Shown here: piece after piece, positions 1,934 through 55,732 of the stretch
Layout of the letters: the number at the start of each line of letters is the position of its first letter
Position numbering within the stretch: the first letter of the stretch is position 1
Source: a virus
Taxonomy: Duplodnaviria > Caudoviricetes
Virus record (IMG/VR): IMGVR_UViG_3300014968_000012
Span: 1-64,000 of that record
Reading direction: 5' to 3' (one strand)
Length of the DNA stretch: 64,000 nucleotides
Program-made: the position numbers and the translations under genes
Notes under the pieces: model-generated
Database searches by the model: none
Told to the model about the DNA's origin: nothing
The model's input: only the letters and a program-made list of their open reading frames with translations

Positions 1934-2464
1934 GTGAACAGCGTCGCCACCCCCGACCACGACCACGACCAGGACCAGGACCAGGACGTCAACGCCGGCG
2001 ACTGGGCCGGCTGGACCGGATGCATCGCGCGCCTGGACATGGACAGCGACGCCGGCCCCCGCATCGCCACCCCCGCCGACGGCGCCGAGCCTCGCACCCG
2101 GGAACTCCCGCTACCGCTGACCTACCTCACCGACCCGATGGCCAGCGGCCACGTTGGCGCCGAAGTCGCCGGCCTCGTCACCCGGGCATGGATCGTCGGC
2201 GACGAGCTCCACGCCGAAGGCTTCGCCAACCACCCCGACCTGTCCGCCCGGCTCGTCGCCGGCGAAACGGTCACCTGCGGCGTGGAACTGGACAGCGTCG
2301 CACTGGTCACCCGCCGCGGCGAAGACCCCGGATCGTTCGTGACGATCGCAGAGGACTGGCGCATCATCGGACTGTGCGCCCACCACCCCGAGGGCATCAC
2401 CGGCCCATCTTTCCCCGGCGTCGGCATCCGGTTCCGCCCGGTGAAGTTCGTCGCCCAGCCTTGA
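1934..2464 (+). CDS. Stand-alone paralog of the capsid maturation protease domain, probably inactive
   Basis: W.G..A.LD.DS..G..I..P..G..PRTR.LP.P..Y...H.GA...GL and A.DWR...P.FP align with the domain at about 25345-25775. Confidence 0.75.
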   Translation: MNSVATPDHDHDQDQDQDVNAGDWAGWTGCIARLDMDSDAGPRIATPADGAEPRTRELPLPLTYLTDPMASGHVGAEVAGLVTRAWIVGDELHAEGFANHPDLSARLVAGETVTCGVELDSVALVTRRGEDPGSFVTIAEDWRIIGLCAHHPEGITGPSFPGVGIRFRPVKFVAQP

Positions 2465-2859
2465 CCGGCGACCCGCCCCACCCCGACGCCCCGCCGGACA
2501 CCCGGCCCCATGTCCCCGAGCTCGGGGCGCCCCTGACCGTCCGCAGCAATCAGGGCATGGTCTACCGGATGCATCACGTCGGATGGCGCGGCGCCGGCGG
2601 CGCGCTGTACGGCCTGGACGAACACCCCGTCTTCCACGAGGCCGAATACGACCCCGTACACGTCATCATCGACGGCGGCCGCACCATCGAAGCGCCGCCG
2701 GACAACCTGTTTCTACGCCGCGAGGTGGGCGCACACGCCGGCGCGCTGCAAGAGTGCGCCGGCGCCCGGGGCCTGAGCGGCGAGGAACTGGAATTCCTCA
2801 GGGCCCTGACCACCATCGCCCGGCTTCTGGACTCCGGGCTGAGGGTGAAACGGCCCTAG
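2461..2859 (+). CDS. Hypothetical protein, paralog of 1375..1788
   Basis: TTGA overlap with the upstream stop. In frame with track ORF 2020..2859. Shared motifs with 1375..1788. Confidence 0.65.
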   Translation: MTGDPPHPDAPPDTRPHVPELGAPLTVRSNQGMVYRMHHVGWRGAGGALYGLDEHPVFHEAEYDPVHVIIDGGRTIEAPPDNLFLRREVGAHAGALQECAGARGLSGEELEFLRALTTIARLLDSGLRVKRP

Positions 2860-2910
2860 GCGCGCGCCGAGCTCCCCGCCGCAGCGCCGGCCCCTGCCTA
2901 CGCTGGCCCG

Positions 2911-3696
2911 ATGACCGAAGCCCCCGGATCCCGCACCCCGATGGCCACGCTCAAGATCGTGGACGACTACGCCGCCACCCACGAAGTCGAACTGGACCAC
3001 GGGACGGCGCTCACCGTCCTGGGCGTCCTGGCCGACCTCACCGGCCGCGCCGACTGGTCCGGCACGCTGAGCCTCAGACTGACCGTGGGACTCCCTCACG
3101 GCCTGGAGCTCGCCGCCGGTTCCATGTCGAAGATGCTCACGCTGCCCGGCCAGGCCCACCGCCACGGCGTCAGCGTCCCGGTCCCCGTCCACCCCTACCG
3201 GTGCAAGTTCTACCTGCGCACGCCGTACACCCCGCCGCCGACCGTGCCAGAAGTGATCACCGTCACCACCGAGGAACTGGACCGGATGCCGCCCCCCGAG
3301 CCCGCCCGCCAGATGTACGAGTACCGCCAGATCAGGATCGGTACGCCGGGCAACGGACACGCTCTCCGGACCGCCACGCCGCCGGCCGTCGGCGACCTCG
3401 TCCAACTCACCGACCGGCCGTACTACCGGGGGACTAGCGACGATGACGTGATCGAGGGAACGTTCCGCGTCGTACGTCGCGGCTTCGACCTCGTCGATCA
3501 CAGCCACATGGTGTGTCTCGCCGACGAGGGAGCCCACCAGCACGGCGGCAACTCGCTGACCATCATCGTGGAGGCCTGCGGCCCTGACGACGGGCGGTAT
3601 CCGTTCTACGCCGACGAGGCGCCCGGCTCGGAAGGCCTGACCGGCGCGCGCCGGCGCGCGGCCGCCGCGCGACTCGCTCAGGTGGTCCAGACCTGA
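2911..3696 (+). CDS. Hypothetical protein (261 aa)
   Basis: Long ORF with GC3-rich codons. TACGCT 6 nt before ATG. Confidence 0.7.
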   Translation: MTEAPGSRTPMATLKIVDDYAATHEVELDHGTALTVLGVLADLTGRADWSGTLSLRLTVGLPHGLELAAGSMSKMLTLPGQAHRHGVSVPVPVHPYRCKFYLRTPYTPPPTVPEVITVTTEELDRMPPPEPARQMYEYRQIRIGTPGNGHALRTATPPAVGDLVQLTDRPYYRGTSDDDVIEGTFRVVRRGFDLVDHSHMVCLADEGAHQHGGNSLTIIVEACGPDDGRYPFYADEAPGSEGLTGARRRAAAARLAQVVQT

Positions 3697-3789
3697 CCGG
3701 CGCCCCGAGGCGTCACACTTCGCCCCGCTCGGAATGATCCGGCCGGCGCGCGCCGATCCACGCGCGCCGGCCTCGTACACCGGCGATGG

Positions 3790-3936
3790 TCAGGACTTTT
3801 CCTCCTCTACCGGGGGCAACCCCGCGGCGGCGCGTGCCGCGTGGAACGCCGCCACCGCCGCCTCGTCCTCGTCGTGCTGTTGCACGGCCGCCGCGAGTGC
3901 GTCCGCCCGTTCCTGTTCTTCGGGTGTCAGAGCCAT
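3790..3936 (-). CDS. 48-aa helical protein (MALTPEEQERADALAAAVQQHDEDEAAVAAFHAARAAAGLPPVEEEKS)
   Basis: Hand-translated. TAGGGT -10 box 6 nt before ATG (leaderless). Confidence 0.6.
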   Translation of the reverse strand: MALTPEEQERADALAAAVQQHDEDEAAVAAFHAARAAAGLPPVEEEKS

Positions 3937-4313
3937 GCGAAAACCCTACTTGTCACCCGTTCGGCTCACATGGGCTTTCCGGTATGGATGCCCGCTATCG
4001 CCGATTCTCGTTCCGATGTATCCAAGCCCCCTGATACGCCTCAGGGGCCGGCGCCGCACGATGGCACCGGCCCCCGACGGGGCACACAACCCGGATCCCG
4101 GGTAGAACCGTTCGGCGGGTCCCATGGCACACAAGACCGGTTCTGGAACGGCGCTCTTCACAGAGCCACACCCGCACACCGGGTAAGAGACGTCTCCGAA
4201 CACGGCCGCAGCCAAGACGCCGGGTTTCACCCCCGCCGACGGGGATTCGACCTGATGACGACGGTACGCCGCTCCCGAGCCGTCCGCAGGAAAACCGGGG
4301 AATCCGGACCCTG

Positions 4314-4739
4314 CTACACAGCGGCCGCTTTCGCCATGTCCAAGTCCATCAGGGCGCCCCGCAGCATCAGCACGGCCCCGACGAGCGCCAACCCCGCCTC
4401 GCCGATCCCGGCCTGAATCGCCCCGCCGGGGGTGAGCGTGAACGCCCGGGACACCCACCGTGCGCCGTCGGCCAGCTTGTCCAGCGCGACTTCCGCCCCG
4501 CCGCCGGCGAGGTCCGTCCGGGACGCCTCCAGTGCCGACACCGCCGCCGGAAGCTCGTCCGTTCCGTACGGTCCAAAGTCCGGAATCTCAGCCGCCATCG
4601 CGATGACGTGGCCGGCCGCTTCCTCCAACTGGTCCCACGCGTACACGATCCGCCGGAACACCGGATCACGCGCGATCGTGTTCCCGAGCGGCACGCGGCC
4701 GCCCGGTGTGCTCTTCCGCTTGCGGCTTGCCCTACCCAC
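4314..4739 (-). CDS. Hypothetical helical protein with C-terminal hydrophobic segment
   Basis: GTG at 4739 overlaps the upstream stop. Protein-like composition in track ORF 4314..4820. Confidence 0.55.
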   Translation of the reverse strand: MGRASRKRKSTPGGRVPLGNTIARDPVFRRIVYAWDQLEEAAGHVIAMAAEIPDFGPYGTDELPAAVSALEASRTDLAGGGAEVALDKLADGARWVSRAFTLTPGGAIQAGIGEAGLALVGAVLMLRGALMDLDMAKAAAV

Positions 4740-5121
4740 GAGGCGCGTCCCCGGCCTCACCGGTGCCGGCGAGCGCCGCCGAGACCCTGAACCGGCGCTC
4801 GCGGCCGCGCACGCTCGCATCGTGTCGCGCGCACCCGCAGCGGCCTTCGTGCGGGTGGACGTAGTCCTGGCCGGCTTTCGCCGCGGCGATCGACTCGTCT
4901 TTCGTCGCGCCGCCCCAGTGGCAGCGCCCTTCCCCGCAGTCCCCGCACGTGGAGTCCATCTCCATCAGTTGCCACGCCTCGTGCAACGGCGGCCGCCGGT
5001 GCTCGCTCAGCACGGGGCTTGCCAGCACGGCGGCCAGCGCCTCAGCCGCCTGTTCCGTCAGCGCGTCCAGTTCGTTGAACGCCGCCAGGCGCTCGTCAAG
5101 GCCCATCGTCGTGGTGTCCAT
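4732..5121 (-). CDS. Hypothetical protein with CxxC...CH and CxC motifs
   Basis: TACGCT-N7-ATG leaderless start. CGDCGEGRCH and RCGCARH motifs. Confidence 0.65.
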   Translation of the reverse strand: MDTTTMGLDERLAAFNELDALTEQAAEALAAVLASPVLSEHRRPPLHEAWQLMEMDSTCGDCGEGRCHWGGATKDESIAAAKAGQDYVHPHEGRCGCARHDASVRGRERRFRVSAALAGTGEAGDAPRG

Positions 5122-5199
5122 GTCGGTGAGCGTAGCCGCGCCGCGGCGGCCCCGGCTCGGCGCCCGGGCGTTCCGTGCGCTGTCCGGGAACATGGTCGG

Positions 5200-5631
5200 A
5201 TGCGTCAGCGACGAGAGCGGCCCCAGCCCACGAAGCCCCCCAAGACCCTGGCCGTGGACTTCGACGGGGTCCTACACGACTACAAACGCGGGTGGGCCGA
5301 CGGCACGATCTACGGCGATTGGAACCCCGGCGCCCTGGCGGCGCTGTACGGCCTCATGCGCCATCACGCGGTGTTCGTCCACACCACCCGCAACCCGCGC
5401 CAGGTGGCCCGCTGGATTGAGCGCCGCAGCGGCCACGGAATCGAGTGCGTGACCTGGCATCCGCGCTGGCGGAAGTTCTGGAACAAGCAAGGGGTCTTGC
5501 TGGTCACCAGCCGGAAACTCCCGGCGGTGGCCTATGTCGATGACCGGGCGATCCGGTTCACCGACTGGCCCCAGACGCTCGGGGAGCTCGGGATCCAGGG
5601 GTACAAGCTCGGCGGCTACGGCACCGGATGA
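5200..5631 (+). CDS. HAD-superfamily phosphatase (phage nucleotidase-like)
   Basis: LAVDFDGV (motif I), HTTR (motif II), RK and AYVDDRA (motif IV). Confidence 0.8.
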   Translation: MRQRRERPQPTKPPKTLAVDFDGVLHDYKRGWADGTIYGDWNPGALAALYGLMRHHAVFVHTTRNPRQVARWIERRSGHGIECVTWHPRWRKFWNKQGVLLVTSRKLPAVAYVDDRAIRFTDWPQTLGELGIQGYKLGGYGTG

Positions 5632-5939
5632 CGGCCGACGCGCCGGCGCGTCCCGACCCGTCGTACGTCGCCGGCCACCCCGAGCTCTTCGAAGCGCTGA
5701 GTCTGTCGCTGCCCGCCGCGCGCGTGGCCGCCGCCGATGCCCTGTTCGACCGGCGCGGCCTACGCCGGCTGACCGCCGACGACGACCACCTGAACCGCGG
5801 CGGCGCGACACGTCGGCACCAGGTGGCGGCCGCCGACGCCCACGAGGCGGTCCGGGCGTTCCTGCGGGAGCTCGCGACGTCGCCGGCCGGGCGCCTGACC
5901 GTCGTGACGCTGTGGGAAGCCCACGAGCACGGCGCCTGA
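5628..5939 (+). CDS. Hypothetical protein
   Basis: ATGA overlap with the HAD gene stop. Confidence 0.55.
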   Translation: MTADAPARPDPSYVAGHPELFEALSLSLPAARVAAADALFDRRGLRRLTADDDHLNRGGATRRHQVAAADAHEAVRAFLRELATSPAGRLTVVTLWEAHEHGA

Positions 5940-6065
5940 CACACACGGATGATCTTGGCCCGGTCTTCGGTGCTGGGGTTGTCCGATCACTGGCAATCGT
6001 GACACTCCGTGGTGTGTGGAATGCGGAGGATCAGATTATTCCCATTTCGCGCTAGGCTCCCCCAC

Positions 6066-7142
6066 ATGAACCGTGAGGAGCGGGATGCGACGGTCACGAA
6101 TCTGCCGAGCGCTCGCCTGCGAAGAACTCCCGACGCCGGCGCCGCGCGAGACGGGGCGCGAGCGGGGCGGATCAAGATCTTGGGAGCCGAACTCAACGAA
6201 CTGGCGGAACTGAGCGACGACCGGGAACCTGGCAGCAACCACTTTCTACCGGTGGCGAACCTGGCGGCCGCATGGCTCGCCGGGGGGCGCTCGGACCGAA
6301 CCCGAACGGCCTACCGGGCGGACTTGGCGCGGTACTTCCGCTGGTGCCACGAACACGCGATCAACCCCGCCACGGCCAAATCGTCGCAGGTCAGAGCCTA
6401 TGACCTGTATCTACGGGGCGTCACGCCGCACCCACGGTCGCCCGGGAAGGGGTCGGCCGGCTACGCCAAGTCCAGCCGCGCCCGGTTCCTGTCGGCCGTG
6501 TCCTCGTTCTACGTGTTCGCCCACCAGCGGGCCGAGATCGCCGAGAACCCCGCCGCGGCGCTGGTCCGGCCCGAGAAAGACACCGTGAGCCGGCGGACCC
6601 TGCGGCCGGACGAGGAACGGGCGCTGTGGGCGTTGATAAGCGGTGACGAGCCGCCGGCGCTCAAGGCGATGCGGTTCAAGGACGTGGTGACCGTGGCCAC
6701 CGTCCTGGCGCTCGGGCTGGACCACGCGTGGCGGCCGTGCCAGGTCTACGCCGCCCGCGTCCTGGACCTCACCCACACCGCGACCGGAATCCCCGCGATC
6801 TCCACCCGCGCCTCAGCCGACAGTCCGCCGGCCGTGCAAGCACTGTCCCCGCGCGCCGTCGGCTGTATCAACCAGATGTTGATCAACGGGCGCGGGTTCG
6901 CGTCCTACATCTGGGCCGACCAGGCGAAAGCCGCATGGGGGGCCGTGAACTGGGGCCCGCTGTTGTCGGTGACCGGCCGGCGCCCGATGGGGCGTCAGTG
7001 GCTCTCGTACACGCTGGAAGAGGTCGCGATCCTGGCCGGCATCGACCCCGGCCGCGACGCGAAACACCAGACGGACCGGCTCACCCCCCTGACGCTGCGA
7101 CGTACCGCGCTGACCCGAACACAGGAGACCCCCACGGCATGA
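6066..7142 (+). CDS. Tyrosine recombinase-like protein lacking most catalytic residues, including the Tyr nucleophile
   Basis: Integrase core-binding region (TRTAY..DL..YFRWC, S.AR.LSAVSSFY, ENPAA). Box I reads AWRPCQ. Box II reads LTPLTLRRT instead of TPH.LRH. The ORF ends about 10 aa later. Confidence 0.75.
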   Translation: MNREERDATVTNLPSARLRRTPDAGAARDGARAGRIKILGAELNELAELSDDREPGSNHFLPVANLAAAWLAGGRSDRTRTAYRADLARYFRWCHEHAINPATAKSSQVRAYDLYLRGVTPHPRSPGKGSAGYAKSSRARFLSAVSSFYVFAHQRAEIAENPAAALVRPEKDTVSRRTLRPDEERALWALISGDEPPALKAMRFKDVVTVATVLALGLDHAWRPCQVYAARVLDLTHTATGIPAISTRASADSPPAVQALSPRAVGCINQMLINGRGFASYIWADQAKAAWGAVNWGPLLSVTGRRPMGRQWLSYTLEEVAILAGIDPGRDAKHQTDRLTPLTLRRTALTRTQETPTA

Positions 7143-7888
7143 ACGAGCTCGTCACCGGACTGCGTCCCTACATCCACGGCCACGACCCGGATCCGTGGCG
7201 GATGGAAGGCGCCGTCTTCACCGACTACCTGGCCGAATTCGTCCCCGAGCTTGACCGGCCAGCGACCGGGCTCCACGTCTTCCCGCACCCCGACGGCAAA
7301 CGGACCACCGCAATCGGTCAGAACGTGGGGATCACCGTCTGGATCCTGTCCGACCGTGGAGCCATGGGCAACGGCCACGCCGCGGCGCTGACGGTCGCCG
7401 CCGCGGTGGCGTACGAGCACGACGACACCGCGCTGTTCGACGTCCATTGGACCGGCGGCATGCAGGCGATCACGGCCCCGGAACTGGGCCGGATGCTCCG
7501 GGCCGTCGAATCCTTCTATGCCACCCTCCCCGAGGGTGAGGCGCCTCTGATCGCCGGCCGGATGCCCTACGGCGACCCCGGCCGCGTCGCCGACCTCACA
7601 CGCCAAGCCGTCCCCATCCCCGACCCGGACACCCTGAGCGGCCTCCAGCGCCGCCGGGGCGGCTATCAGGGCATGTCGCACGAGGAAGCCGTGGAGATCG
7701 CCGTCAAGGAAGCCGCGCGGCGCGGCCACACGGCGGTTCGCCGGAACCCGGAAGGGCAACAGGTCTGGCGCGGATGGTGTGTGGCGTGCCACATGGACCT
7801 CATGGTCTTCCCGGCCACCATGGGTGGGGACTGTCTGCTCAAAGACTGCCCCATGGTGGAGAAAACGACAGAAATCACCGGAGAGTGA
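7139..7888 (+). CDS. Hypothetical protein with C-terminal CxxC...C...C motif
   Basis: ATGA overlap and AGGAG RBS inside the end of the recombinase gene. Confidence 0.7.
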   Translation: MNELVTGLRPYIHGHDPDPWRMEGAVFTDYLAEFVPELDRPATGLHVFPHPDGKRTTAIGQNVGITVWILSDRGAMGNGHAAALTVAAAVAYEHDDTALFDVHWTGGMQAITAPELGRMLRAVESFYATLPEGEAPLIAGRMPYGDPGRVADLTRQAVPIPDPDTLSGLQRRRGGYQGMSHEEAVEIAVKEAARRGHTAVRRNPEGQQVWRGWCVACHMDLMVFPATMGGDCLLKDCPMVEKTTEITGE

Positions 7889-8069
7889 CAACATACTGAT
7901 GTGGAGCTACAGACACGGACCCCGACCCGGCCACACGCCGCCGGGCCTCATAACCCGGCGCGCGCCGGCCCGCCGGTCGCGCGCCCGGACGCCATCGTTT
8001 CCCCGGGGCTCCCTGGAGACGCGATCTTCAAGGTACTGCCCAGACCCCGCAGAACCGGAATGAGGAACC

Positions 8070-8288
8070 ATGACCACCACCGACCGTTGGACCGCCGCCG
8101 CGTTAGCCGCCGTCATCATCCTGTTTCTGGTGTGGAACGGCTTGTGTGCGCGCCGATCAGCCGCCGCGCTGGAACGCATCGCTGACGGTGTGCGCCGGGC
8201 CACGCGCCCGAACCTCGGGAGCGCCCAGCCGGACCGCGCCGCGCTGTTCACCTCGCCACGCACCACCGACGCCCGGCCGCCACGGTGA
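8070..8288 (+). CDS. Small membrane protein
   Basis: GAGGA RBS. N-terminal TM segment AAALAAVIILFLVW. Confidence 0.6.
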   Translation: MTTTDRWTAAALAAVIILFLVWNGLCARRSAAALERIADGVRRATRPNLGSAQPDRAALFTSPRTTDARPPR

Positions 8289-8355
8289 CCGCCGCCGAGT
8301 CCCGCCAGGGCGCCGCCCCCGTCCTGGCCTGCGTCCAGGACGCCCGGCCCCACTG

Positions 8356-8586
8356 GTGACCATCGTCCTGGCGCTGTTGGTCGCCGCCGGACTCGGATGC
8401 ACCGCCGCGGCGCTGCGTGTCCTGGAGCGCCGCGTACAAGAACTGGAACGGCAATCCCGCGACGCCGCCACGAACCGCTCGCCGCCCGCCGACGAGCCCG
8501 ACCACAAGCCGCAAGCGCCACCCGCAAGCGCCAGCGGCGAACTTCCCCAGACGCTCGTACTACACCTCTTCGGAGACCACGAATGA
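8356..8586 (+). CDS. Small membrane-anchored coiled-coil protein
   Basis: VTIVLALLVAAGLG TM segment followed by heptads. GTGA coupling to a 24-aa ORF at 8285..8359. Confidence 0.55.
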   Translation: MTIVLALLVAAGLGCTAAALRVLERRVQELERQSRDAATNRSPPADEPDHKPQAPPASASGELPQTLVLHLFGDHE

Positions 8587-8632
8587 GCTATTCAGAGTTC
8601 GCCACCGCCGCGACCACGACGGGAGCCGCAGC

Positions 8633-8743
8633 ATGAACGCGCCATCCACCGGGGGCGTGTGGGGGTGGGCCGTAGGGACCGCAGCATTCGCCGTCGCCGC
8701 CTTCCTGTGCGGCACGTGGTGGTGCAAGCGGGGTCACAAGTGA
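8633..8743 (+). CDS. 36-aa membrane peptide
   Basis: ATGA/GTGA coupling at both ends. One TM helix followed by KRGHK. Confidence 0.5.
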   Translation: MNAPSTGGVWGWAVGTAAFAVAAFLCGTWWCKRGHK

Positions 8744-9258
8744 ACGGGTGCACCGCCGACCCCGAAGAGCTCGGCGAGTACTACGCCCGGATTCACCCGC
8801 TGGACCGCGACGGCATCCCGTGGGGAGCCCCCCTCGTCGGCCGTGGAGCGTTCTCGCTCCAGGTGGCCGCCGACGACCCCGGCGACGGCCTGGACCTGTC
8901 CTGGAGCGCCGGCGTCCGGCTCTCCCCGGTCCGGCTCGGGTTCCGCACCATGGCCACGGCGCGCGCCGGCCGGATGGGGCCCGGGGACTACGCGGTGGAG
9001 CTCTTCGCCCCGGCCAATGACCTGGTCTGGCGCTATCTGATGTTCCCCCGCGTGCGGGGCGCCGTCCTGGAGGTCCCGGACTGGCAGGGACACAACCGGC
9101 TGTTGTACTCGATCACCGGCCTGGCCGTGGTTCCGCGCTACCTGCCCGACCTCGGAATCCCCGACTTCCGCCCCGGTGAAGACAAGGGCACGATGTATAA
9201 GAGCACCACCAGCCGATTCGACCCGGTGAGGATGTGGAGGGGGGTCCCGGCCACATGA
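8740..9258 (+). CDS. Internally deleted paralog of the major tail (tube) protein
   Basis: R...LD..G.P...P, AF, GFR, AVEL and W.YL..P...G motifs in the same order as in 31807..33411. Confidence 0.65.
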   Translation: MNGCTADPEELGEYYARIHPLDRDGIPWGAPLVGRGAFSLQVAADDPGDGLDLSWSAGVRLSPVRLGFRTMATARAGRMGPGDYAVELFAPANDLVWRYLMFPRVRGAVLEVPDWQGHNRLLYSITGLAVVPRYLPDLGIPDFRPGEDKGTMYKSTTSRFDPVRMWRGVPAT

Positions 9259-9752
9259 TCGGCTTCCACGGCGACGCGGTGGAGAAAGCCGGCGAGGTGC
9301 GACGCCTGCGCGTGATCCTGGCCACGCGCCTACTGCTCCGGATGACCGCCGTCCAGTATCACCACCTGTCGGCGGCGTTGCCGAGCGTGCCCCCGTGCGA
9401 CTCGATCGAGTACAGCGGCACGGTGGGGGCCATGGGCGTGGACTATGAGATCAACGGCCACGGCTACGGATACCACCGCATCCGCTATGACGCCGGGCTC
9501 GGCTGGGCGTGCTGCCACCAGCGCGGCCCGGGCCGTACCCACCCCTTCCAGGCGTTCCCCGACTGCCAGGACAACGACGAGGCGCTGAACGCGATCGTGG
9601 CGCACATCATCCAAGACGCGATCGAGAACCGGTACCGCATGCCGCTGGACCGGAACCTCTTCCACGCCGACGACGAGCCGGCGCCGGGCCTGACGTGGGA
9701 CCCGTTCGCCGGCAAGTGGACCGGCGGCCACGCGACGGGACCGGCATCGTGA
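9255..9752 (+). CDS. Hypothetical protein sharing a domain with 10237..10722
   Basis: ATGA coupling. GYHRIRYD...W..C motif. Confidence 0.65.
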   Translation: MIGFHGDAVEKAGEVRRLRVILATRLLLRMTAVQYHHLSAALPSVPPCDSIEYSGTVGAMGVDYEINGHGYGYHRIRYDAGLGWACCHQRGPGRTHPFQAFPDCQDNDEALNAIVAHIIQDAIENRYRMPLDRNLFHADDEPAPGLTWDPFAGKWTGGHATGPAS

Positions 9753-10240
9753 GAACGCCGAAGTTTGCCCAGCCGTCGTCACAACCCGGACTGGCCCCGG
9801 AGTTCGTTGCCGCGGCGGCCGCGTGGCCGTCGGGCCGGCTGTTGCTGTCCGCCCGCATGAGGCTGATCAAGCACTACGGCCGGGACCCCGCAGACATCAG
9901 GATGGCGACGCACGTCCACCTGACCGACCCCGAGGAACGGGCGGCGTGGATCTCCCTCGCCGCCCGCCACCCCGACGGCCCGGTACACCTGGTCCACGTC
10001 TTCGCTTTCGACCCGCGCGCGGGCGGCTGGCAGCACGACACCGCCCCGGAGGAATACACCGACGACGGACCGCCCGGCCGCCGCGTCGCGTTCGTCAGCG
10101 CCAGCGACCCGTTCGACGTGATCAAGGTGACCGACACGAACCGGTACGGCCGCCAGGTGGCGACCTACCTCAACCGAGCCGCCGCGACCCGGGCCATCCC
10201 CGGCGCGCGCCGTAGCGAACAGGAGACACCGCACCGATGA
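9749..10240 (+). CDS. Hypothetical protein
   Basis: GTGA coupling, in frame with track ORF 9509..10240. Confidence 0.6.
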   Translation: MRTPKFAQPSSQPGLAPEFVAAAAAWPSGRLLLSARMRLIKHYGRDPADIRMATHVHLTDPEERAAWISLAARHPDGPVHLVHVFAFDPRAGGWQHDTAPEEYTDDGPPGRRVAFVSASDPFDVIKVTDTNRYGRQVATYLNRAAATRAIPGARRSEQETPHR

Positions 10241-10722
10241 GCCACGCCGCCGACCCGATCGAGATCCCCGGACAACTGGTGCCCGCCCCCGCCGGCGCCC
10301 CCCTGGGCCACCACGCCGCCATGATCGGTGACGAACTGAGCCGCCGACTGGCGCCGTACGCCGACGTCAGCACGTTTGAAGTGACCGTGACGCCGTCCGC
10401 CGACCCGGACATCCGTGTCCCGGCCGGCCTGGAGATCGTGATCCCGGCGGAATCCCCGCTCGGCTATCACAAGATCACCTATGACGAGACGCGCCAGTGG
10501 GGCTACTGCTCAGCGCAGAACGCCGACCCCGCCTCGTGCTGGATCCCGCTCCCCGACGCCCCGACGCCCGAGGTGCTGGACGCCGCCGTGGAATGGGTCG
10601 TCTACACCCACCGCCGACGCGACCGGCACGACCCGTCGGCGCCGCTCCCGGCATCGGCGGGTGCTGATGGGGCGATAGCGGTTCGACACGTGTCAGACCC
10701 GGGCGCGACAATGCCCGCATGA
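10237..10722 (+). CDS. Hypothetical protein sharing a domain with 9255..9752
   Basis: AGGAG RBS and ATGA coupling. GYHKITYD...W..C motif. Confidence 0.65.
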   Translation: MSHAADPIEIPGQLVPAPAGAPLGHHAAMIGDELSRRLAPYADVSTFEVTVTPSADPDIRVPAGLEIVIPAESPLGYHKITYDETRQWGYCSAQNADPASCWIPLPDAPTPEVLDAAVEWVVYTHRRRDRHDPSAPLPASAGADGAIAVRHVSDPGATMPA

Positions 10723-11192
10723 CCCCCGAGAGCCGCAACCCTCACAACCGGGACCACCACGGCGCCGCGACCGTCGCGCCGGCGACGGCCACGTACACCG
10801 TGACCGACGAGGACCGCGAGGCGGCGCCGGCGATGGTGGTCGTCGTCGGCGGCCGCGAGTACACGGCCACGTGCCCGCCGTCCGAGGTGTGGGCCTACCT
10901 CGCGCCGTACCTGCGCGTAGACGGCACGATGCCCGGCCAGGTCTGGCGACACCTCGCGTTCCAAGACGAGGCCACCGCCGGCCTGGAGGGCTTCGACGCC
11001 TTCCGTGGGACCTGCGACATGGTCCGGGCCGGGTCCCGGTTCCTGGCCGGGTCCCTGACTCACGAGGGAATCCACGAAATCCGGATGCAGCTGGCGGCCG
11101 GCACGTGGACCGGCCATGACGTCATGCTGAACGTCCGCGCCGCGGTGGGCCTGTGGTGGGACCACGTGACGGTGAGCCCCGACCTTGACTAG
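10719..11192 (+). CDS. Paralog of the tail assembly chaperone
   Basis: GG..Y.A..P...VW...A, A...FL...LT......IR and G........A....W motifs match 39156..39587. Confidence 0.6.
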   Translation: MTPESRNPHNRDHHGAATVAPATATYTVTDEDREAAPAMVVVVGGREYTATCPPSEVWAYLAPYLRVDGTMPGQVWRHLAFQDEATAGLEGFDAFRGTCDMVRAGSRFLAGSLTHEGIHEIRMQLAAGTWTGHDVMLNVRAAVGLWWDHVTVSPDLD

Positions 11193-11532
11193 CCGACCGG
11201 ACTCCGACGACATCGCCGGTGCCCCGATCACGCAGGCGGAAGCCACCCGCCTGCGTGAAGACATCGCCCGGGTTGAAGCCACCATGAAAGACGTCGTTAG
11301 CGCGATGCACGCCGGCGGCTACCGGCCCCAGCGTGCGGCGCGGCCCAAGGACCAGCGTGGAGCGCTGCCCTGGAAGCACATGGGGCCGTCCCCGTTCTGG
11401 GCGGTCCACGGCTACACGGACCGCGCCGCCTCCAGGCTCGGCGACGTGATGGGCCTGATTCAGGAAGCTCGCGAAGATCTTCAGGCCGCCAAGTCCCAAC
11501 TGAACGCGGCCGGTCACTCCCCCCGTGGCTGA
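11185..11532 (+). CDS. Coiled-coil hypothetical protein
   Basis: Overlaps both neighbours. Heptad pattern. Confidence 0.6.
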   Translation: MTSRPDSDDIAGAPITQAEATRLREDIARVEATMKDVVSAMHAGGYRPQRAARPKDQRGALPWKHMGPSPFWAVHGYTDRAASRLGDVMGLIQEAREDLQAAKSQLNAAGHSPRG

Positions 11533-11878
11533 GTCCTGCGTCCCGCCGGCGCGCGCCGGCGACGGCCCCGACCTCGGGTGCTGGGACCCGGCGGCGCTCG
11601 CGGCCGTCCGTCGGGACATCGCCGCCCTGCGGGACGCCATGACCGACGACATTCGCCGCCAGCGCGTCTATCTCGGGGACCTGACCGCAGTCCTGTACCA
11701 GCGGAACGCCGTGCGCGGCGAGCTCACGGACGCCCTGTTGCGGCTGGACGCGGCCCGCACGCAACTGGCCACCGCCAGCGCCGTGGGCCGCGACGTCGGG
11801 ACCGTGCTGCGACGGCTGGACGCGGCCGCCCGCCGGATGGACCTGTTCGCAGAATTGATCATCACTCCGGTGGAGTAG
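11525..11878 (+). CDS. Coiled-coil hypothetical protein
   Basis: Overlapping GTG start. Ala/Leu/Arg helical composition. Confidence 0.55.
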   Translation: MAESCVPPARAGDGPDLGCWDPAALAAVRRDIAALRDAMTDDIRRQRVYLGDLTAVLYQRNAVRGELTDALLRLDAARTQLATASAVGRDVGTVLRRLDAAARRMDLFAELIITPVE

Positions 11879-11918
11879 CGTTCCCCGATCCGACCGACAC
11901 CCCGTGCATGATCGAACC

Positions 11919-12818
11919 ATGAGCGTTTCGACGTCCGGGCGGCTTCAGTGGCTTGCCGACGTCGCCCGGGCCGCCGGTCTTGACGTTGTCGAGACCGACG
12001 GGTGGCGCCAGCGCGGACACGGGGACTTCCGTGAAGTCCGCGGCGTGATGATGCACCACACCGGCGACGGCGGCCATGGGAACATGCCGGCCCTTCCAGC
12101 CCTGATCAACGGCCGCCCGGACCTCACCGGGCCGCTGTGTAACTACGCGCTGGGCCGGGACGGCACCGTGTACGTGGTGTCCGCCGGCGTGGCCTGGCAC
12201 GCCGGGACCGGCGTGTGGTCGTGGCTCCCGCGCGACCTCGGGAACTGGTACAGCGTCGGCATCGAAGCCGAATCCGTCGGCACGCTCGATGACTGGACGC
12301 CGGCCCAGCGCGCGACGTACCCGCGACTGTGCGCGGCTATCTGCCGTGCGCTGGGCGTGGACGGGAGTCGCGTCGTCGGTCACAAGGAGTACAACCCGCC
12401 GCCGGGCAAGTTCGACCCGGCGTTCTGGGACATGAACGCCGTCCGTGCGCAGGTCAACGCGCTTCTGAAAGGTGACGACATGGACACCGCCACGCCCGTG
12501 GGCTTCCCCGCCGACGCCCCCGGATACTTCGAGAGCCTGTTCCCGGGACTCGGCGCCGTGATCAAAGCGAACTTCACCCCGGGCGGCTCGGCATCGTTCG
12601 GGATGACGACGGCGTACACCGACATGCGCGCGTGCGCCGCGCTGTACCTCGGGATCCAGAACGCCAAGGCCCTGGCGACGGTGAACGAGACGCTGGGCCA
12701 GGTGATCGCGGCCCTGTCCCGGGCCGTCCCCGGCTTCGCCATGGCGGCCGCTGAGGAGTCGGCCCCACCGTCGGCCGGCGCGGGTGTGGCGGCTGGACCG
12801 CCGACGACGAGCGCCTGA
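11919..12818 (+). CDS. Endolysin, N-acetylmuramoyl-L-alanine amidase (Amidase_2 type)
   Basis: WLADV.R.AGL.V.E..GW..RGHG, MHHTG, GRPDL.GPL, AWHAG, GIE, GHKE and K.DP motifs typical of actinophage lysin amidases. Confidence 0.9.
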   Translation: MSVSTSGRLQWLADVARAAGLDVVETDGWRQRGHGDFREVRGVMMHHTGDGGHGNMPALPALINGRPDLTGPLCNYALGRDGTVYVVSAGVAWHAGTGVWSWLPRDLGNWYSVGIEAESVGTLDDWTPAQRATYPRLCAAICRALGVDGSRVVGHKEYNPPPGKFDPAFWDMNAVRAQVNALLKGDDMDTATPVGFPADAPGYFESLFPGLGAVIKANFTPGGSASFGMTTAYTDMRACAALYLGIQNAKALATVNETLGQVIAALSRAVPGFAMAAAEESAPPSAGAGVAAGPPTTSA

Positions 12819-15344: not shown

Positions 15345-16049
15345 ATGAGCATGATCAAGGCGACATATCCCGGTGCTGGGACGTATCTCGGGACCGGAAA
15401 CGACCCCACGGACGATGACGAAGAGCTCGGACCTGACCTTTTCGACCGGTTCCCGGGCGAACCGGTCAAGGCATATGCCTACTTCAAGCAGTTCTGCGAG
15501 ATGGGCCCGGGCCGAAAGGTCAAGAAACTGTCAGAAAAGGTCAACAAGTCAACCGCGTATTTCTATAAGTTAGCAAGTGGGTGGCAATGGAAAGCCCGGG
15601 CAGCGGCATACGACGCCGCAGAGGACCAGGCGGTCCAAATCGAGATCAGGGCCCAGCGTGTCCGCCTGTCCCGCCAACAACTCGCGGTGGCAACGGGGTA
15701 CTTCCACTGGACGGCCCGCTACCTGTCTCGTATGACAGACGACAAACTGGACGAGATGACCCCCGGCGAGGTGGCCAAGTGGACCACCGCCGCGTCCACG
15801 CTGTTCCGCGTCGCGCTCGGGGAGCCTGACCAGCGCATCGCGCTCGGGACCGGCGACGCCATGGGCGGGTTCCGGCCGCTGGCCCAGATGAGCGAGGGAG
15901 AGCGCCGCGCCGAGCTCGGTACGCTCTTGGCGGACATCGGGCGCCGGTTCGCCAACGGGGAACAGTTCGCCGGCACCGACGAGGAAGCGCTACTGGCGCT
16001 TCTGTCGGCCCCCGAAGACCTGAACCGCGCGACCGGTCCGGCCGGGTGA
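15345..16049 (+). CDS. Terminase small subunit (HTH type)
   Basis: AY.YF..F..MGP.R...KL......W.W..RAAAYD motif. Directly upstream of and overlapping TerL. Confidence 0.7.
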   Translation: MSMIKATYPGAGTYLGTGNDPTDDDEELGPDLFDRFPGEPVKAYAYFKQFCEMGPGRKVKKLSEKVNKSTAYFYKLASGWQWKARAAAYDAAEDQAVQIEIRAQRVRLSRQQLAVATGYFHWTARYLSRMTDDKLDEMTPGEVAKWTTAASTLFRVALGEPDQRIALGTGDAMGGFRPLAQMSEGERRAELGTLLADIGRRFANGEQFAGTDEEALLALLSAPEDLNRATGPAG

Positions 16050-17638
16050 GCCGGCGCGCTGATCCCAAGCTGGAGCGTGCTCGGGACCTGATCGCCATGC
16101 GTAGCCCGGTGGCCCTGGCCACACGGTTTGACCGGACCTACGGCCGCCGGGCTCACGCCGACCTCATCTCGGGCGCGGTCATGAAGTGCGCGTCCGGCGA
16201 GGAAAACAGGATCCTGATTACGCTCCCGCCGCAGTCCGGGAAGAGCACGACGGCCGCCGTCTGGGGCTCGTTCTGGTGGCTGATCCACAACCCCACACAC
16301 CGGATCATGGTGGCCTCGTACGCCGCGTCCCTGGCGATCGACCGGGGGAAGGCCGTGCGGGAGCTCGTGCGCGAGCACGGCCACCGGTTCGGGCTCAAGC
16401 TACGCGCGGGCTCGGCGGCCGCAGAGAACTGGTACCTGACCACCGGCGGCGGCATGCGCTGTTTCGGCGTGGACGGCGGCGCTACCGGCTTCGGCGCGAA
16501 CGTCGTCATCGGGGACGACTTGATCAAGGGCCGCAAGGATGCCGAGTCCGTTCGCGTCCGTGAGGACGTGGACAAGTTCTGGTCCTCTTCCCTGGTCACG
16601 CGCCTTGCGCCGCGCGCCCCCATGATCCTGATCATGACCCTGTGGCACCCGGACGATATCGGCGGCCGCGTGGTCAAGCGGGAAGGCGACCGGGCGACCG
16701 GCGGCCGGTGGCACGTGCTGAAGATGCCGGCGTTTGCCACCAGCGAACAAGACCCGCTGGGCCGCGCCGTCGGGGAGCCGCTGCCCCATCCCCTGATTCC
16801 CGACGGCGACACCGAAGCCCTGGCCGAGCACTGGAACGGGGCGCGCTCCACCGTGTCCGCACAGGACTGGGGCGCCATGTACCAGTGCGACCCCAAGCCG
16901 CGGGAAGGCGCGCTGATCACCGCCGAAGTCCTGGCCGAGCGGCGCGTCCTGACGAACCGGCCGCGACCGGTCGCCGTCGCCGTGGCGGTGGACCCGTCCG
17001 GCGGCGGCAAGGACACCGCCGGCATCATCGGCGGCTACCTGGCAGAGGACGGCCGCGTGGTCATCACCGACGACGAGACGGCCGTGATGAGCGTGGAGAA
17101 GTGGCCGCGCGTCGCCTGCGAGCTCGCCGCCCGCACGAACGCCCACCGGTTCGTCGTGGAAACCGACTTCGGCGCACGTATGGGTCTGGCCCTGATCCGG
17201 ACCGCGTGGGACTCCCTGGCCCGAGAGTGGGAGGAAGAGCACCAAGTGGAGGGGCGCCCGGTCGGCAAGGTCGGGTCCTGGACGCCGGGCAACCCCTACT
17301 CGCGGCCGTGCCCGCGCCTGGCGAAGAGACGCGCCCGTGAGATGGGGCCCAAGCTCGTGCGCGCCGAGCCGGTGGCCCAACAGATCATTGAGGGGCGCGT
17401 GGTCCTGGGCTCGTACATGCCGGAGTTCGAAGACGAGTGGGCCAGCGTCCAGGCCGGCCGGGAGTCGCCCGGGCGCGTGGACGCGTCCGTGTGGCTCGTG
17501 TACGACCTGATGTTGCCCCCGGCGACCGGGCCCGGCGCCACGCCGCCGCCGGCGAACGTGGACCGCCGCGAGGTTCAGCGGAACCCGACGGACACCACGT
17601 CCATCCACGGGCGCCGGATCATCCGGCCCGGGCAGTAG
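16046..17638 (+). CDS. terL: Terminase large subunit
   Basis: PPQSGKS Walker A, IGDDLIKG Walker B, TLWH.DD coupling motif, YQ..P, AVDPS nuclease motif, RVDA. Confidence 0.93.
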   Translation: MSRRADPKLERARDLIAMRSPVALATRFDRTYGRRAHADLISGAVMKCASGEENRILITLPPQSGKSTTAAVWGSFWWLIHNPTHRIMVASYAASLAIDRGKAVRELVREHGHRFGLKLRAGSAAAENWYLTTGGGMRCFGVDGGATGFGANVVIGDDLIKGRKDAESVRVREDVDKFWSSSLVTRLAPRAPMILIMTLWHPDDIGGRVVKREGDRATGGRWHVLKMPAFATSEQDPLGRAVGEPLPHPLIPDGDTEALAEHWNGARSTVSAQDWGAMYQCDPKPREGALITAEVLAERRVLTNRPRPVAVAVAVDPSGGGKDTAGIIGGYLAEDGRVVITDDETAVMSVEKWPRVACELAARTNAHRFVVETDFGARMGLALIRTAWDSLAREWEEEHQVEGRPVGKVGSWTPGNPYSRPCPRLAKRRAREMGPKLVRAEPVAQQIIEGRVVLGSYMPEFEDEWASVQAGRESPGRVDASVWLVYDLMLPPATGPGATPPPANVDRREVQRNPTDTTSIHGRRIIRPGQ

Positions 17639-20568: not shown

Positions 20569-21438
20569 GTGAGGTCCCTGCTGTCCATCCACGAGTCCCT
20601 GATCCCGAGCTCGTCCCGCTACGTGATCGCGCTCGCGTCCGCCGCGGACCTCCAGGCCGTCGCGTGCCACGTGGTCAACTGGGCCGGCCCACACGCCGAC
20701 GAGGTGGAGACGGTCACCGGCCCCACGACCGTGAGCCTGGTCGTCAACTCCTCGTGGTGCTCGGGACAGGGGTCGCTGAAGTTCCAGGCTTCGGGCTCTG
20801 ACCTGTGCCCGATGACCGCGCCGGGGACGTTCACCGTCGCCGCCGGCGCCGTGGACGCCTGTACGGCCACCTCGCCGACGGTCGCCGTGACCGTGTCCGG
20901 GACGTCGGACCAGTTCTGGGCGCGCGGCCAGGCCACCGTCAGCCCGACGCCGGTCGCGTCGCAGAACCCGTCGGCCGGCTACCCGGTGACGTGGTCCGTG
21001 GAACCGCCGTTGCCCGAGGGACTGGTGATCGACCCGTCCACCGGCGTGATCTCCGGGACCCCGATGTACGGCCCGAGCCCGTCCACGCCCTACGTGCTGC
21101 GGGCCACGACCCGGTCCGGGAGCGGCTACGCCACCTTCAACGCCGGCGTCCAGGCCGCCCCGAACACGGTCACCGTCGCGACGGTCCCGGCGCAGGCCTG
21201 GACCCATGCCGTCGCGATCACGAACGTGACGCCGCACGCGACCGACAGCGACGGGACGTTGACCTCGTTCACCTGGTCCATCAGCCCGGCGCTTCCGTCG
21301 GGCGTGTCCCTGAACACGTCCACCGGCGTGATCTCCGGGACGCCAGCCGCCGCCGCGGCTCAGGCCCCCTACACCCTGACCGCCACCGACCGGACCGGCG
21401 CGCAGGGTTCGACCACCTTCAACGTCACCGTGAGCTGA
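20569..21438 (+). CDS. Putative virion protein with two He_PIG-type Ig domains
   Basis: W...P.LP.G...D/N.STGVISGTP occurs twice. GGGAG RBS. Confidence 0.75.
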   Translation: MRSLLSIHESLIPSSSRYVIALASAADLQAVACHVVNWAGPHADEVETVTGPTTVSLVVNSSWCSGQGSLKFQASGSDLCPMTAPGTFTVAAGAVDACTATSPTVAVTVSGTSDQFWARGQATVSPTPVASQNPSAGYPVTWSVEPPLPEGLVIDPSTGVISGTPMYGPSPSTPYVLRATTRSGSGYATFNAGVQAAPNTVTVATVPAQAWTHAVAITNVTPHATDSDGTLTSFTWSISPALPSGVSLNTSTGVISGTPAAAAAQAPYTLTATDRTGAQGSTTFNVTVS

Positions 21439-21452: not shown

Positions 21453-22526
21453 ATGATCCAGCCCGAGAATGAGGCCCGCCTCATCCTGGCCGACACCACC
21501 GACCTGAACAACGCCGCGTGCGTGCTCACGTGCTGGGCCGGCCCGGAGAACGCCGGCGCGATCCGTATCGAGAACGCCGGCGCGTCGATCGCGTTCGTGG
21601 TGGACCGCCGGTGGTGCACCGACGCCGGCCCGCTGAAGTTCACCGACGACGGCCCCGACCTGTGCCCGCTGTCCGGCGCTCAGGAGATCCCGGCCGGCGT
21701 CACGGTGTGCTCGGCGGCCACGTGCACCCACGGCCCGGCGTTCACCGTGGACGCCTCCACGAACCCGGTCAGCCTGACCGTCACCGGCCCGGCCGGCGGC
21801 GGCCCGTTCACCGTCTATTGGGGCACCGGGACCCTGACGCACCAGGACGTCACGCTCGGGGAGACGGTCAAGGCGCTCTATCTGGAGGCCGGCGTCTATC
21901 AGGTCCGCGTCCAGGACCAGCGGACCGGCGTGTACGGCAAGACGGCCACCGTCGTGATCGAGCGCGACCCGGAGACCACGACCTTGTCCTGTCCGCCGGA
22001 CCAGCACAGCACGGCCGGTCAGTCGGTGTCGGTGACCCTGTCGGCCCGCTCGCAGGACCCGAACGTCACGACGTACACGTGGACCGCCGACGGCCTCCCG
22101 GGCGGCGTGGACCTCCACACCGACGGCGGCAAGGTGGCGACCCTGTCCGGCGTGGTCGGTGTCGCGCAGGACGCCGCGCCGGTCAGCGTGACCGTCACCG
22201 ACCGGTTCGGCAACGCCACCTCGTGCGGGTTCATGTGGGCGGTGGACAGCGGCGTCACCGTCGCGCCGATCTCGGACCAGTCCTGGTCCTCCGGGGCGGC
22301 CATCACCGCCGTGACGCCGTCGGTGACCGACGCCAACCCGGACGACGGGACGGGCTACGCCTGGTCCGTCTCCCCCTCGCTCCCGTCGGGCGTGTCCCTG
22401 AACGCGGACACCGGCGTGATCTCCGGGACGCCGGAAGCGCCGATGACGACGACCACGTACACCCTGACCGCGATGGACGCCACCGGCCAGGCCGGGTCCA
22501 CCTCGTTCCGCGTCACGGTCGGCTGA
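21453..22526 (+). CDS. Putative virion protein with PKD/He_PIG Ig domains, paralog of 20569..21438
   Basis: Shared N-domain (C...WAGP, WC...G.LKF...G.DLCP) and near-identical last Ig repeat. Confidence 0.75.
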   Translation: MIQPENEARLILADTTDLNNAACVLTCWAGPENAGAIRIENAGASIAFVVDRRWCTDAGPLKFTDDGPDLCPLSGAQEIPAGVTVCSAATCTHGPAFTVDASTNPVSLTVTGPAGGGPFTVYWGTGTLTHQDVTLGETVKALYLEAGVYQVRVQDQRTGVYGKTATVVIERDPETTTLSCPPDQHSTAGQSVSVTLSARSQDPNVTTYTWTADGLPGGVDLHTDGGKVATLSGVVGVAQDAAPVSVTVTDRFGNATSCGFMWAVDSGVTVAPISDQSWSSGAAITAVTPSVTDANPDDGTGYAWSVSPSLPSGVSLNADTGVISGTPEAPMTTTTYTLTAMDATGQAGSTSFRVTVG

Positions 22527-22629
22527 GGGGCCGACGTCGTGACGCGGGCCATGCGCACCCCGACCCACCGGCCGCCGCTGCGGGCGGCCGGTGCTCGGCG
22601 TGTCCTGGCCCGGGTGGCGGTGGTCTGAC

Positions 22630-31198: not shown

Positions 31199-31807
31199 TT
31201 GACAATCATCGTGCCCAAGGATGCCGACGACTTCGACGCGCTGTTGAACCTCGCGCTGAACGCCGACTATCCGGACAAGCGCATTGAGTTGCGCACGCAC
31301 ACGCCGTTCACGTCGCTGGACGTCCCCGAGGGACTGGCCCGCGCGATGGGCTTCGTCCCCGCCGACGAGGCCGCCGCCGCGGCGCCGCCGGCGTCGCCCG
31401 AAGCCGTCGTCTCCCCCGAGCTCGGCGCCGACGACGACGGCCAGGCCGCCGAGCCCACGGCGCCGGCGACCCCGGACGACGAGGCGCCGGCCCCGGACGC
31501 GACGGCCGCTCAGGTCGAAGCAACGGCCGACGTCCCCACCGACGACGCCCCGGCCCCGGCGCCGGCCGACGTGCCCGCCGACGCGCGGGCGACCGACGCC
31601 GCCGAGCCGACGGCCCCGGAGACCACCGACGCCGCCGAGCCGGCGCCGGCCACGGAAGCCCCCACCGCCGCCGAGCCCGCCACCGCTGAGGAGATCGCGC
31701 CCGACGCGGCCGCCGACGCGGACGACGAGCCGGCCGCCGCCAGTGAGCCGACCCCGAGCCGCAGGAGCGGCCGGGGCGGCAAGTCCAAGGAAGGACGGGA
31801 CGTCTGA
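31199..31807 (+). CDS. Ala/Pro/Asp/Glu-rich head-region protein
   Basis: TAAGGA RBS. Short globular N-terminus followed by a low-complexity tail. Confidence 0.65.
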   Translation: MTIIVPKDADDFDALLNLALNADYPDKRIELRTHTPFTSLDVPEGLARAMGFVPADEAAAAAPPASPEAVVSPELGADDDGQAAEPTAPATPDDEAPAPDATAAQVEATADVPTDDAPAPAPADVPADARATDAAEPTAPETTDAAEPAPATEAPTAAEPATAEEIAPDAAADADDEPAAASEPTPSRRSGRGGKSKEGRDV

Positions 31808-33500: not shown

Positions 33501-33635
33501 GGTTCGGGGCCGGACCAGCGCGCGCGGCGCCCCTCTTCTGGATCTTGAAGTGATCGTCCCGAAAACGTTTCATTACAAGATTGCACTGCACTGCATTGCA
33601 AATCTGAAATGAAATCCTTAGTAAGGGTTGAACCC

Positions 33636-54381: not shown

Positions 54382-54436
54382 CGCTTGGCGGCGTGTTCGT
54401 CCTCTGACGATACAGTGTCGAGTTCGGCACTGTCAA
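54382..54436 (-). promoter_or_regulatory. Cassette promoter, operator and leader, copy 1
   Basis: TTGACA-N18-TATCGT, ACAGTG-N10-CACTGT dyad, CACGCCGCCAAGCG leader. Confidence 0.85.
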
Positions 54437-54472
54437 CGCGAGTGATGGGGCGGCCGCCTGGAGGGGAGACGA

Positions 54473-55731: not shown

Positions 55732-55732
55732 G

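Follow-up and report, generated by a model that had tools for sequence, protein, structure and literature searches.

A free-standing, serine-less relative of the head protease domain in the accessory arm of a novel actinophage

Introduction

Does the left arm of the phage genome IMGVR_UViG_3300014968_000012 carry a second, disabled set of the phage's own assembly genes? The DNA analysed here (the window) covers bases 1-64,000 of an 87,249-bp single contig of 71% G+C, the genome of a novel actinophage, and the question concerns positions 1934-12818 of it. An earlier note had proposed that three open reading frames (ORFs) of this arm, gp1934, gp8740 and gp10719, are expressed but disabled copies of the phage's protease domain, tail tube and tail chaperone. 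A real module of this sort would have represented a novel type of phage system. We consider it likely that the arm is instead a conserved accessory block with one true relative of an assembly gene, gp1934, and no mirrored morphogenesis module, and that gp1934 is probably a binder that does not cut.

Results

gp1934 is related to the protease domain of the head fusion protein

We called genes by third-position GC, since DNA of 71% GC is full of spurious ORFs, and checked the calls against the stored calls of an identical metagenomic contig (L004). An all-against-all comparison of the predicted proteins of the genome was followed by direct tests of the three claimed pairs. gp1934 matches residues 362-501 of the MuF-protease head fusion protein (hereafter the fusion protein) with a BLASTP E value of 4e-11 and 29% identity over 147 residues. 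Smith-Waterman alignment of the pair gives a z score of 18-20, with none of 1000 shuffles scoring as high, and hhalign returns a probability of 97% with shallow profiles and of 100% (E 1e-40, 144 columns) with deep profiles. The matching part of the fusion protein, domain A, comprises about 140 residues. The genes for TerL, portal, MuF fusion, capsid, tail, chaperone and tape measure all lie within 16-45 kb (Table 1), and gp1934 has ORFans as neighbours and is located outside the head module, 20 kb upstream of the portal gene.

The AlphaFold2 model of gp1934, built on 24 sequences, has a predicted local distance difference test score (pLDDT) of 89.1 and a predicted template-modelling score (pTM) of 0.80. 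When this model was compared with the PDB using Foldseek, all top matches were herpesvirus assemblins or T4 gp21. VIA-align places T4 gp21 (5JBL_A) first, with Z 9.0 and 121 residues aligned, and gives Z 8.7 for the varicella-zoster virus (VZV) protease (1VZV) and Z 6-8 for other assemblins. Since the top matches of both searches are all assemblins or gp21, the modelled fold of gp1934 is that of the prohead protease and assemblin group (MEROPS clan SH: S21, S77, S78, S80). BLASTP, Smith-Waterman, hhalign and the AlphaFold fold thus agree with the earlier note that gp1934 is a relative of the protease domain.

Pfam has no match, Peptidase_S78, S77 and S80 included, for gp1934, for domain A of the fusion protein or for 10 family members, and in PHROGs one domain relative is weakly linked to 'major head and protease' fusions (phrog_4523, E 6e-7). 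Searches of PDB sequences, by phmmer with gp1934, gp8740 and gp10719 and by a profile of the domain family, gave nothing useful. By tblastn, neither gp1934 nor gp39156, the genuine tail assembly chaperone (TAC), has a match among 50,697 phage records. A word-indexed homologue search returned one relative cluster each for gp1934, gp8740 and gp10719.

Loss of the conserved serine in gp1934 and its free-standing relatives

At the putative nucleophile, the WISVD of the fusion protein reads TCGVE in gp1934, a change from serine to glycine that confirms the loss of a catalytic part described in the earlier note. His73 is kept, the serine position is Gly116 with Cys115 as its neighbour, and Asp141 of the 'DWR' motif is kept. 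Because Gly116 replaces the conserved serine, gp1934 is probably a structural relative of the proteases and not an active member. In domain A of the fusion protein, H406 and S454 are invariant in 16 fusion orthologues.

In a HMMER search of 1.84 billion representative proteins, a profile of domain A gave 630 hits, mostly long head proteins. In these, domain A either follows a MuF domain or is N-terminal, and domain B (phrog_18402 / phrog_29860) comes after it in both arrangements. Among 127 long head proteins, the histidine is kept in 122 and the serine in 123, and glycine occupies the serine position in one. The corresponding counts for 25 free-standing forms, defined as at most 260 residues long, are nine, five and 18, with gp1934 among the last. 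This split between architectures fits gene location: a free copy with both histidine and serine (P0134) lies between the MuF and capsid genes, the usual protease slot, and the serine-to-glycine copies P0019 and P0042 have small genes without annotation as neighbours. Cultured Arthrobacter, Gordonia and Microbacterium phages have domain A in one gene per genome, annotated 'capsid maturation protease' or 'capsid maturation protease and MuF-like fusion protein', and no free-standing degenerate copy was found in cultured phages (50,697 records, at tblastn sensitivity).

Domain B of the fusion protein covers approximately residues 915-1076 (window 26985-27590), has invariant H942, H950, H994, H1009 and S1053, and is labelled 'head maturation protease' in PHROGs. 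Domains A and B align by hhalign at a probability of 11%, over a C-terminal motif of 22 columns only (DWR...PAFP-like).

The residues left in gp1934 raise the alternative that it is an active protease using His73 with another nucleophile, Cys115, and would then process substrates of its own as a second soluble enzyme. The histidine and a Cys-Gly at the serine position are found in gp1934 and in its orthologues P0002 and P0019, and the gene is under purifying selection, as this alternative would have it; however, the cysteine is present in six of the 25 free copies and the histidine is absent from 16, so that the chemistry is not common to the class. Moreover, 117 of the 127 long proteins, which keep the dyad, have Val or Ile, hydrophobic residues of a buried type, at the position of Cys115, and a neighbour of the serine on the strand should point away from the active site, as reasoned from the strand and not from coordinates. 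An active gp1934 is therefore, in our view, improbable.

gp1934 belongs to an old lineage with sister copies in the right arm

Two further free-standing copies, gp75062 and gp74044, lie in the right arm, about 72 kb from gp1934. They are also without the His/Ser pair, their cluster representatives P0008 and P0009 having Leu/Ser and a gap/Arg at these positions. In a tree of 71 domains, a branch with an SH-like approximate likelihood ratio (SH-aLRT) support of 96 parts 47 dyad-keeping domains from 24 degenerate ones. The fusion domain of the window is among the 47, nested with its orthologues (65% identity to P0011), and gp1934 and the cluster representatives of both right-arm copies are among the 24.

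Because gp1934 has 29% identity to the phage's own fusion domain, it is, judged by sequence, clearly not a recent copy of that gene. Its orthologues have 71% (L003) and 38% (L006) amino acid identity, and a pair like gp75062 and gp74044 is kept in the same neighbourhood in L007 and L008, at 36% and 32% identity. Thus, three free lineages recur in distant relatives. The idea of disabled copies of the phage's own genes therefore holds for the serine-less protease domain as far as the disabling goes, but what was disabled belongs to an old, diverged lineage. Nor does gp1934 define a module of this arm, because two further copies sit in the right arm; what had been proposed as a shadow module contains one homologous gene.

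A second small gene shows the same distribution. gp9749 (9749-10240) has a right-arm paralogue at genome positions 75974-76342 (50% identity over 40 residues, E 1.6e-5, phmmer 2e-7), which adjoins the right-arm protease-like copies, and so at least two families of small genes are common to both arms.

The claimed tail tube and tail chaperone copies

gp8740 had been paired with the major tail protein with FN3 domains as a copy of the tail tube. This pair is at chance level, with a BLASTP E value of 1.5, an hhalign probability of 0.4% and a Smith-Waterman z score of -0.5 (718 of 1000 shuffles score as high), and the other candidate tail or tube genes of the phage pair with gp8740 no better. gp8740 has no Pfam or PHROG match at E ≤ 10, and its relatives form a single cluster at 92% identity. 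On this sequence evidence, it is without detectable relation to structural proteins and is strongly constrained. Its AlphaFold2 model, built on three near-identical sequences only, has a pLDDT of 33. An Atlas feature search with gp8740 gave sub-threshold rows only (0.85; double-jelly-roll capsid fragments), which we judged to be noise.

gp10719 and the genuine chaperone gp39156 have 17 identities in 63 positions (BLASTP E 0.016; Smith-Waterman p ~9e-4, for a single pair), some of them in a GG.xY...P...VW block where the TAC domain begins. The hhalign probability of the pair is 1.1%, and neither gp10719 nor its orthologue P0007 matches a TAC family even at E ≤ 10. The ESM Atlas model of gp10719 has a pLDDT of 0.39, and its top structural row is a 'tail assembly chaperone' cluster with template-modelling (TM) scores of 0.32/0.36. 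The gene lies 29 kb from the tape measure gene, and the TAC slot upstream of the tape measure is occupied by gp39156 and gp39593. As a copy of the chaperone, gp10719 is thus marginal and unconfirmed. It might still be a genuine, highly diverged second TAC-fold protein, independent of any module: the Smith-Waterman score at the start of Phage_TAC_16, the common block and the Atlas row all point that way, but the hhalign probability, the missing TAC matches and the low pLDDT and TM scores do not, and the aligned stretch holds about 20 informative residues. We regard a second TAC-fold protein as a tentative and rather doubtful possibility.

Of three by-eye alignments in a 71% GC genome, one was therefore confirmed, and the resemblance of three ORFs to structural genes narrows to the protease. 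The claim that the copies follow the same relative order as the real genes rests on the tube and chaperone pairs, and fails with them. In full, the proposal under examination was that protease, tube and chaperone copies form an expressed decoy module that poisons the assembly of competitors or soaks up host sensors. A real protease copy that has lost its serine, the marginal likeness of gp10719 with its weak Atlas lead, and the intact and constrained state of all the genes speak in its favour. However, the tube part is largely refuted, the chaperone pair fails every profile test, and the protease copy comes from an old free-standing lineage with two sisters in the other arm, which leaves no colinear module; no promoter signal exceeds chance either (see below). 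About four in five genes of the phage (~80%) are likewise without any family match in Pfam and PHROG scans, so that ORFans beside an endolysin are nothing special. We conclude that such a module is very unlikely.

The arm is a conserved accessory block under selection

The region 1934-12818 is part of an accessory, non-structural arm of about 22 small genes that are limited to this phage group. A syntenic version of the arm, with 56-97% protein identity, is found on the 12-kb metagenomic contig L003, where all genes but gp2911 are present and intact. The absence of frameshifts reported earlier thus extends to two diverged genomes. Across the arm genes with an orthologue, the ratio of non-synonymous to synonymous substitution rates (dN/dS; Nei-Gojobori NG86, against L003) is 0.16-0.9. 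It is 0.49 for gp1934, 0.45 for gp6066, 0.16 for gp8740 and 0.39 for gp10719, compared with 0.54 for the endolysin, which is certainly functional.

These results bear on the possibility that the arm is the decayed relic of a second phage's structural module. gp1934 without its serine and gp6066 without its tyrosine, both short compared with the full enzymes, could be seen as such remains. Yet there are no frameshifts or stops, the flagged genes have dN/dS values at or below that of the endolysin, copies are kept at 32-38% identity in more distant relatives, the GC content of the arm and its GC at third codon positions (GC3) match those of the rest of the genome, and the truncated end of gp6066 is itself conserved. 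Because the arm genes are intact in a relative, with dN/dS of 0.16-0.9, a relic is disfavoured and the genes appear to be under purifying selection; we hold decay to be extremely improbable. A second prophage or tandem phage was ruled out, as there is one contig with one set of structural genes.

gp1934 is flanked by gp1375 and gp2461, which have 40% identity to each other (E 1e-22 to 1e-24); gp1375 has no Pfam or PHROG match. The 261-residue ORFan gp2911 (2911-3696) is the sole arm gene missing from the syntenic L003, and looks like a recent gain or loss. The run of eight overlapping genes directly upstream of the endolysin is lineage-restricted, is conserved in full in L003, and has no Pfam or PHROG family at E ≤ 0.01. 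The endolysin that the earlier note placed at the end of the arm is supported by both its Pfam and its PHROG matches (Table 1).

We found nothing special in the way these genes are wired for expression, contrary to what had been suggested: overlaps of 4 or 8 bp are usual in phage operons, and the promoter-like site at 10683-10712, which had been assigned to gp10719, was the sole one found and equals the chance expectation of 0.9. Scans of 1-16.1 kb for consensus promoters and terminators showed no excess over shuffles, and Rfam and tRNA scans of the arm found nothing. The strong promoter cassette of the phage itself, TTGACA-N18-TA(A/T)CGT with a conserved inner dyad, has 11 exact matches at 54407-63490, with 0 expected by shuffles. 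Five are oriented leftward and six rightward, diverging near 59.9 kb, and none is in the arm.

A recombinase-like protein and a repeated palindrome

gp6066 matches Phage_int_SAM_1 (E 6.7e-8) and aligns to XerD residues 10-134 (E 2.6e-6), and has no catalytic-domain (Phage_integrase) match in the Pfam scan. It ends 24 residues past H334 (the H334..R338 region) with no tyrosine in the tail, and the L003 orthologue ends alike. The description of gp6066 as a crippled recombinase is therefore accurate, in that it has the core-binding domain only and lacks the catalytic tyrosine; from its sequence, it probably binds DNA without acting as a recombinase. Comparison with the integrase of Saccharomonospora phage PIS 136 was uninformative.

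The genome contains 18 copies of the 12-bp palindrome CGGCGCGCGCCG. The window has 11 of them, where 0.44 would be expected and no shuffle reaches that number. The stretch from 18.1 to 71.4 kb has none, and on a circular map the copies cluster in a single region of about 34 kb, in which the three free protease-like genes also lie. In L003, five or more of the copies are conserved at orthologous places, among them the one 79 nt upstream of gp1934. The palindrome is a candidate operator, 'stoperator'-like or parS-like site, and gp6066 and the ParB-like gp12941 are candidates for the protein that would bind it.

Relation to cultured phages and other observations

The nearest cultured phage by TerL is PIS 136, with 44% identity. 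The two phages have structural genes alone in common, and PIS 136 has no homologues of the left arm and no detectable domain A. A megablast search with 45 kb of the window against the 50,697 phage records gave no match.

Two further features lie in the structural region. One is a Mom-like gene at 34445-34909 (Pfam Mom E 1e-6; phrog_1384 E 2e-39), situated between the head-tail adaptor gene and the structural gene that follows. The other is a pair of adjacent paralogues with Ig-like He_PIG domains (E 1e-20), at 20569-21438 and 21453-22526, between the terminase and portal genes, an unusual position for apparent decoration or adhesin-like proteins.

Table 1 Features of the arm, of the structural region and of the right arm. 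Positions are those of the window unless given as genome positions.
Feature	Position	Strand	Remarks
gp1375, 137 residues	1375-1788	+	Paralogue of gp2461; orthologue in L003
gp1934, 176 residues, free-standing domain with predicted prohead protease fold	1934-2464	+	Paralogue of domain A
gp2461, 132 residues	2461-2859	+	4-bp overlap with gp1934 stop; paralogue of gp1375; L003 orthologue at 89% identity
gp6066, tyrosine-recombinase-like	6066-7142	+	Core-binding (SAM-like) domain only
Eight overlapping genes (36, 172, 165, 163, 161, 157, 115 and 117 residues)	8633-11878	+	Directly upstream of endolysin
gp8740, 172-residue ORFan	8740-9258	+	Claimed tail-tube copy
gp10719, 157-residue ORFan	10719-11192	+	Claimed second tail chaperone
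Endolysin, N-acetylmuramoyl-L-alanine amidase	11919-12818	+	Amidase_2 E 9e-20; phrog_880 endolysin E 2.5e-50
Large terminase	16046-17638		
Portal	22591-24276		
MuF-protease head fusion protein	24273-27857 (24009-27857 if upstream start)	+	Phage_Mu_F, phrog_859/18402
Domain A of the fusion protein	25356-25775	+	Bears His406/Ser454; counterpart of gp1934
Major head protein	28178-29944		
Major tail protein with FN3 domains	31807-33411	+	phrog_792 E 7e-57; fn3; "real tube" of the earlier note
Head-tail adaptor	33609-34448		
Genuine tail assembly chaperone gp39156	39156-39587	+	Phage_TAC_16 E 4.9e-8, 33.3 bits against a cutoff of 27; upstream of tape measure
Tape measure	40215-43181		
gp74044, further free copy	genome 74044-74604 (L001:10044-10604)		Right arm, outside window; weaker match
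gp75062, further free copy	genome 75062-75511 (L001:11062-11511)		Right arm, outside window
CGGCGCGCGCCG in the window	354, 1855, 3642, 3744, 7956, 8957, 10201, 11547, 13797, 15175, 18099		
CGGCGCGCGCCG elsewhere in the genome	genome 71462, 72890, 74920, 77260, 80376, 82434, 82529		

Discussion

The sequence homology of gp1934, its modelled fold, the loss of the conserved serine, the long retention in diverged relatives and the accessory location outside the head module lead us to infer that it would be a pseudo-enzyme, which keeps the protease scaffold and binds rather than cuts. Its binding partner could be whatever the active protease binds. One candidate would be the substrates of the protease. 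Herpesvirus assemblins are active only as dimers, and because of this need for dimerisation the active protease domain itself is a second candidate. A third would be a host factor that the protease targets.

Several points weigh against this interpretation. Binding without cutting is what we infer from sequence and models, and the gp1934 lineage keeps His73 and Cys115 beside the lost serine, so that residual activity with another nucleophile may exist. Either domain of the fusion protein, A or B, may be the one that cuts in this family. Long-branch attraction may contribute to the grouping of the degenerate copies in the tree. The dN/dS values come from one genome pair, and the GC3 of ~0.9 depresses dS, so that the ratios overstate dN/dS. 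In addition, with a model of pLDDT 33 only, a tail-protein-like structure of gp8740 is still conceivable.

A function as decoy or assembly poison would be possible for the protease copies only. Cleavage of a CD-NTase loop by prohead proteases activates CBASS (Hobbs and Kranzusch 2026, PMC12991175). The prohead protease is also a site of CBASS escape mutations (Richmond-Buccola et al. 2023, doi 10.1101/2023.05.21.541620). A host target of the protease as the partner of gp1934 has become concrete through this activation of CBASS. gp1934, gp74044 and gp75062 might then be substrate-trap decoys or dominant-negative partners, which would bind without cutting either cleavage-activated immune sensors, the CD-NTase activation loops of CBASS being one such example, or the protease of a co-infecting relative. 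We think this unlikely, though not to the degree of the full module. If true, these would be recurrent counter-defence or exclusion genes of actinophages, built from a dead head protease, and the sensing of prohead-protease cleavage by CBASS makes this a concrete hypothesis for dead protease copies that is cheap to test.

Whatever the partner of the probable non-cutting binder gp1934, the analysis brings out a small family of head-protease look-alikes, nearly all without the His/Ser pair, which lies outside Pfam and is found in accessory regions of high-GC, actinophage-like genomes. The closest relatives in sequence are the capsid maturation protease and MuF-like fusion genes of actinophages, which have the domain in common with gp1934 and with the phage's own fusion protein. 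These genes lie in the head module, keep the histidine and serine and occur once per genome, whereas gp1934 is free-standing in an accessory arm and has no serine. The best structural matches of the gp1934 model, T4 gp21 (5JBL) and the herpesvirus assemblins (VZV 1VZV; human cytomegalovirus, HCMV, 1NJU), are active Ser/His enzymes with 10-18% sequence identity to gp1934, which has glycine instead.

For function, an analogy may be drawn with the cellular and viral FLIPs, catalytically dead paralogues that regulate caspase-8. They could serve as a model for gp1934, as pseudo-enzymes that keep the fold and the partner-binding surface of a protease dependent on pairing, although the two have no kinship in sequence or fold.

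The nearest known phenomenon is found in phiKZ-like giant phages, which encode small, very diverged paralogues of the prohead protease (SPN3US gp117, 201phi2-1 gp206 and PhiPA3 gp143; Ali et al. 2017, PMC5694885). The finding of a paralogous protease in a phage was described as without precedent when it was reported, and no function was assigned (Ali et al. 2017, PMC5694885). Like gp1934, these proteins are short (136-176 residues), extra head-protease cores that are encoded away from the genuine protease gene, are very diverged with an incomplete catalytic set, and are without the C-terminal part. However, they belong to the S80/S77 (phiKZ gp175 / T4 gp21) sequence family of jumbo myoviruses, whereas the parent of gp1934 is the MuF-fused domain of actinophages, which has no Pfam model. 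SPN3US gp117 keeps the serine and the aspartate, whereas gp1934 has glycine for the serine; and here there are three copies per genome, in a free-standing class that recurs on several metagenomic actinophage-like contigs. The gp1934 class is thus the phiKZ-type phenomenon in a different protease lineage, set apart by its serine-to-glycine signature and by three copies per genome, and its recurrence in an unrelated lineage suggests that a dead head protease has been put to use by phages repeatedly.

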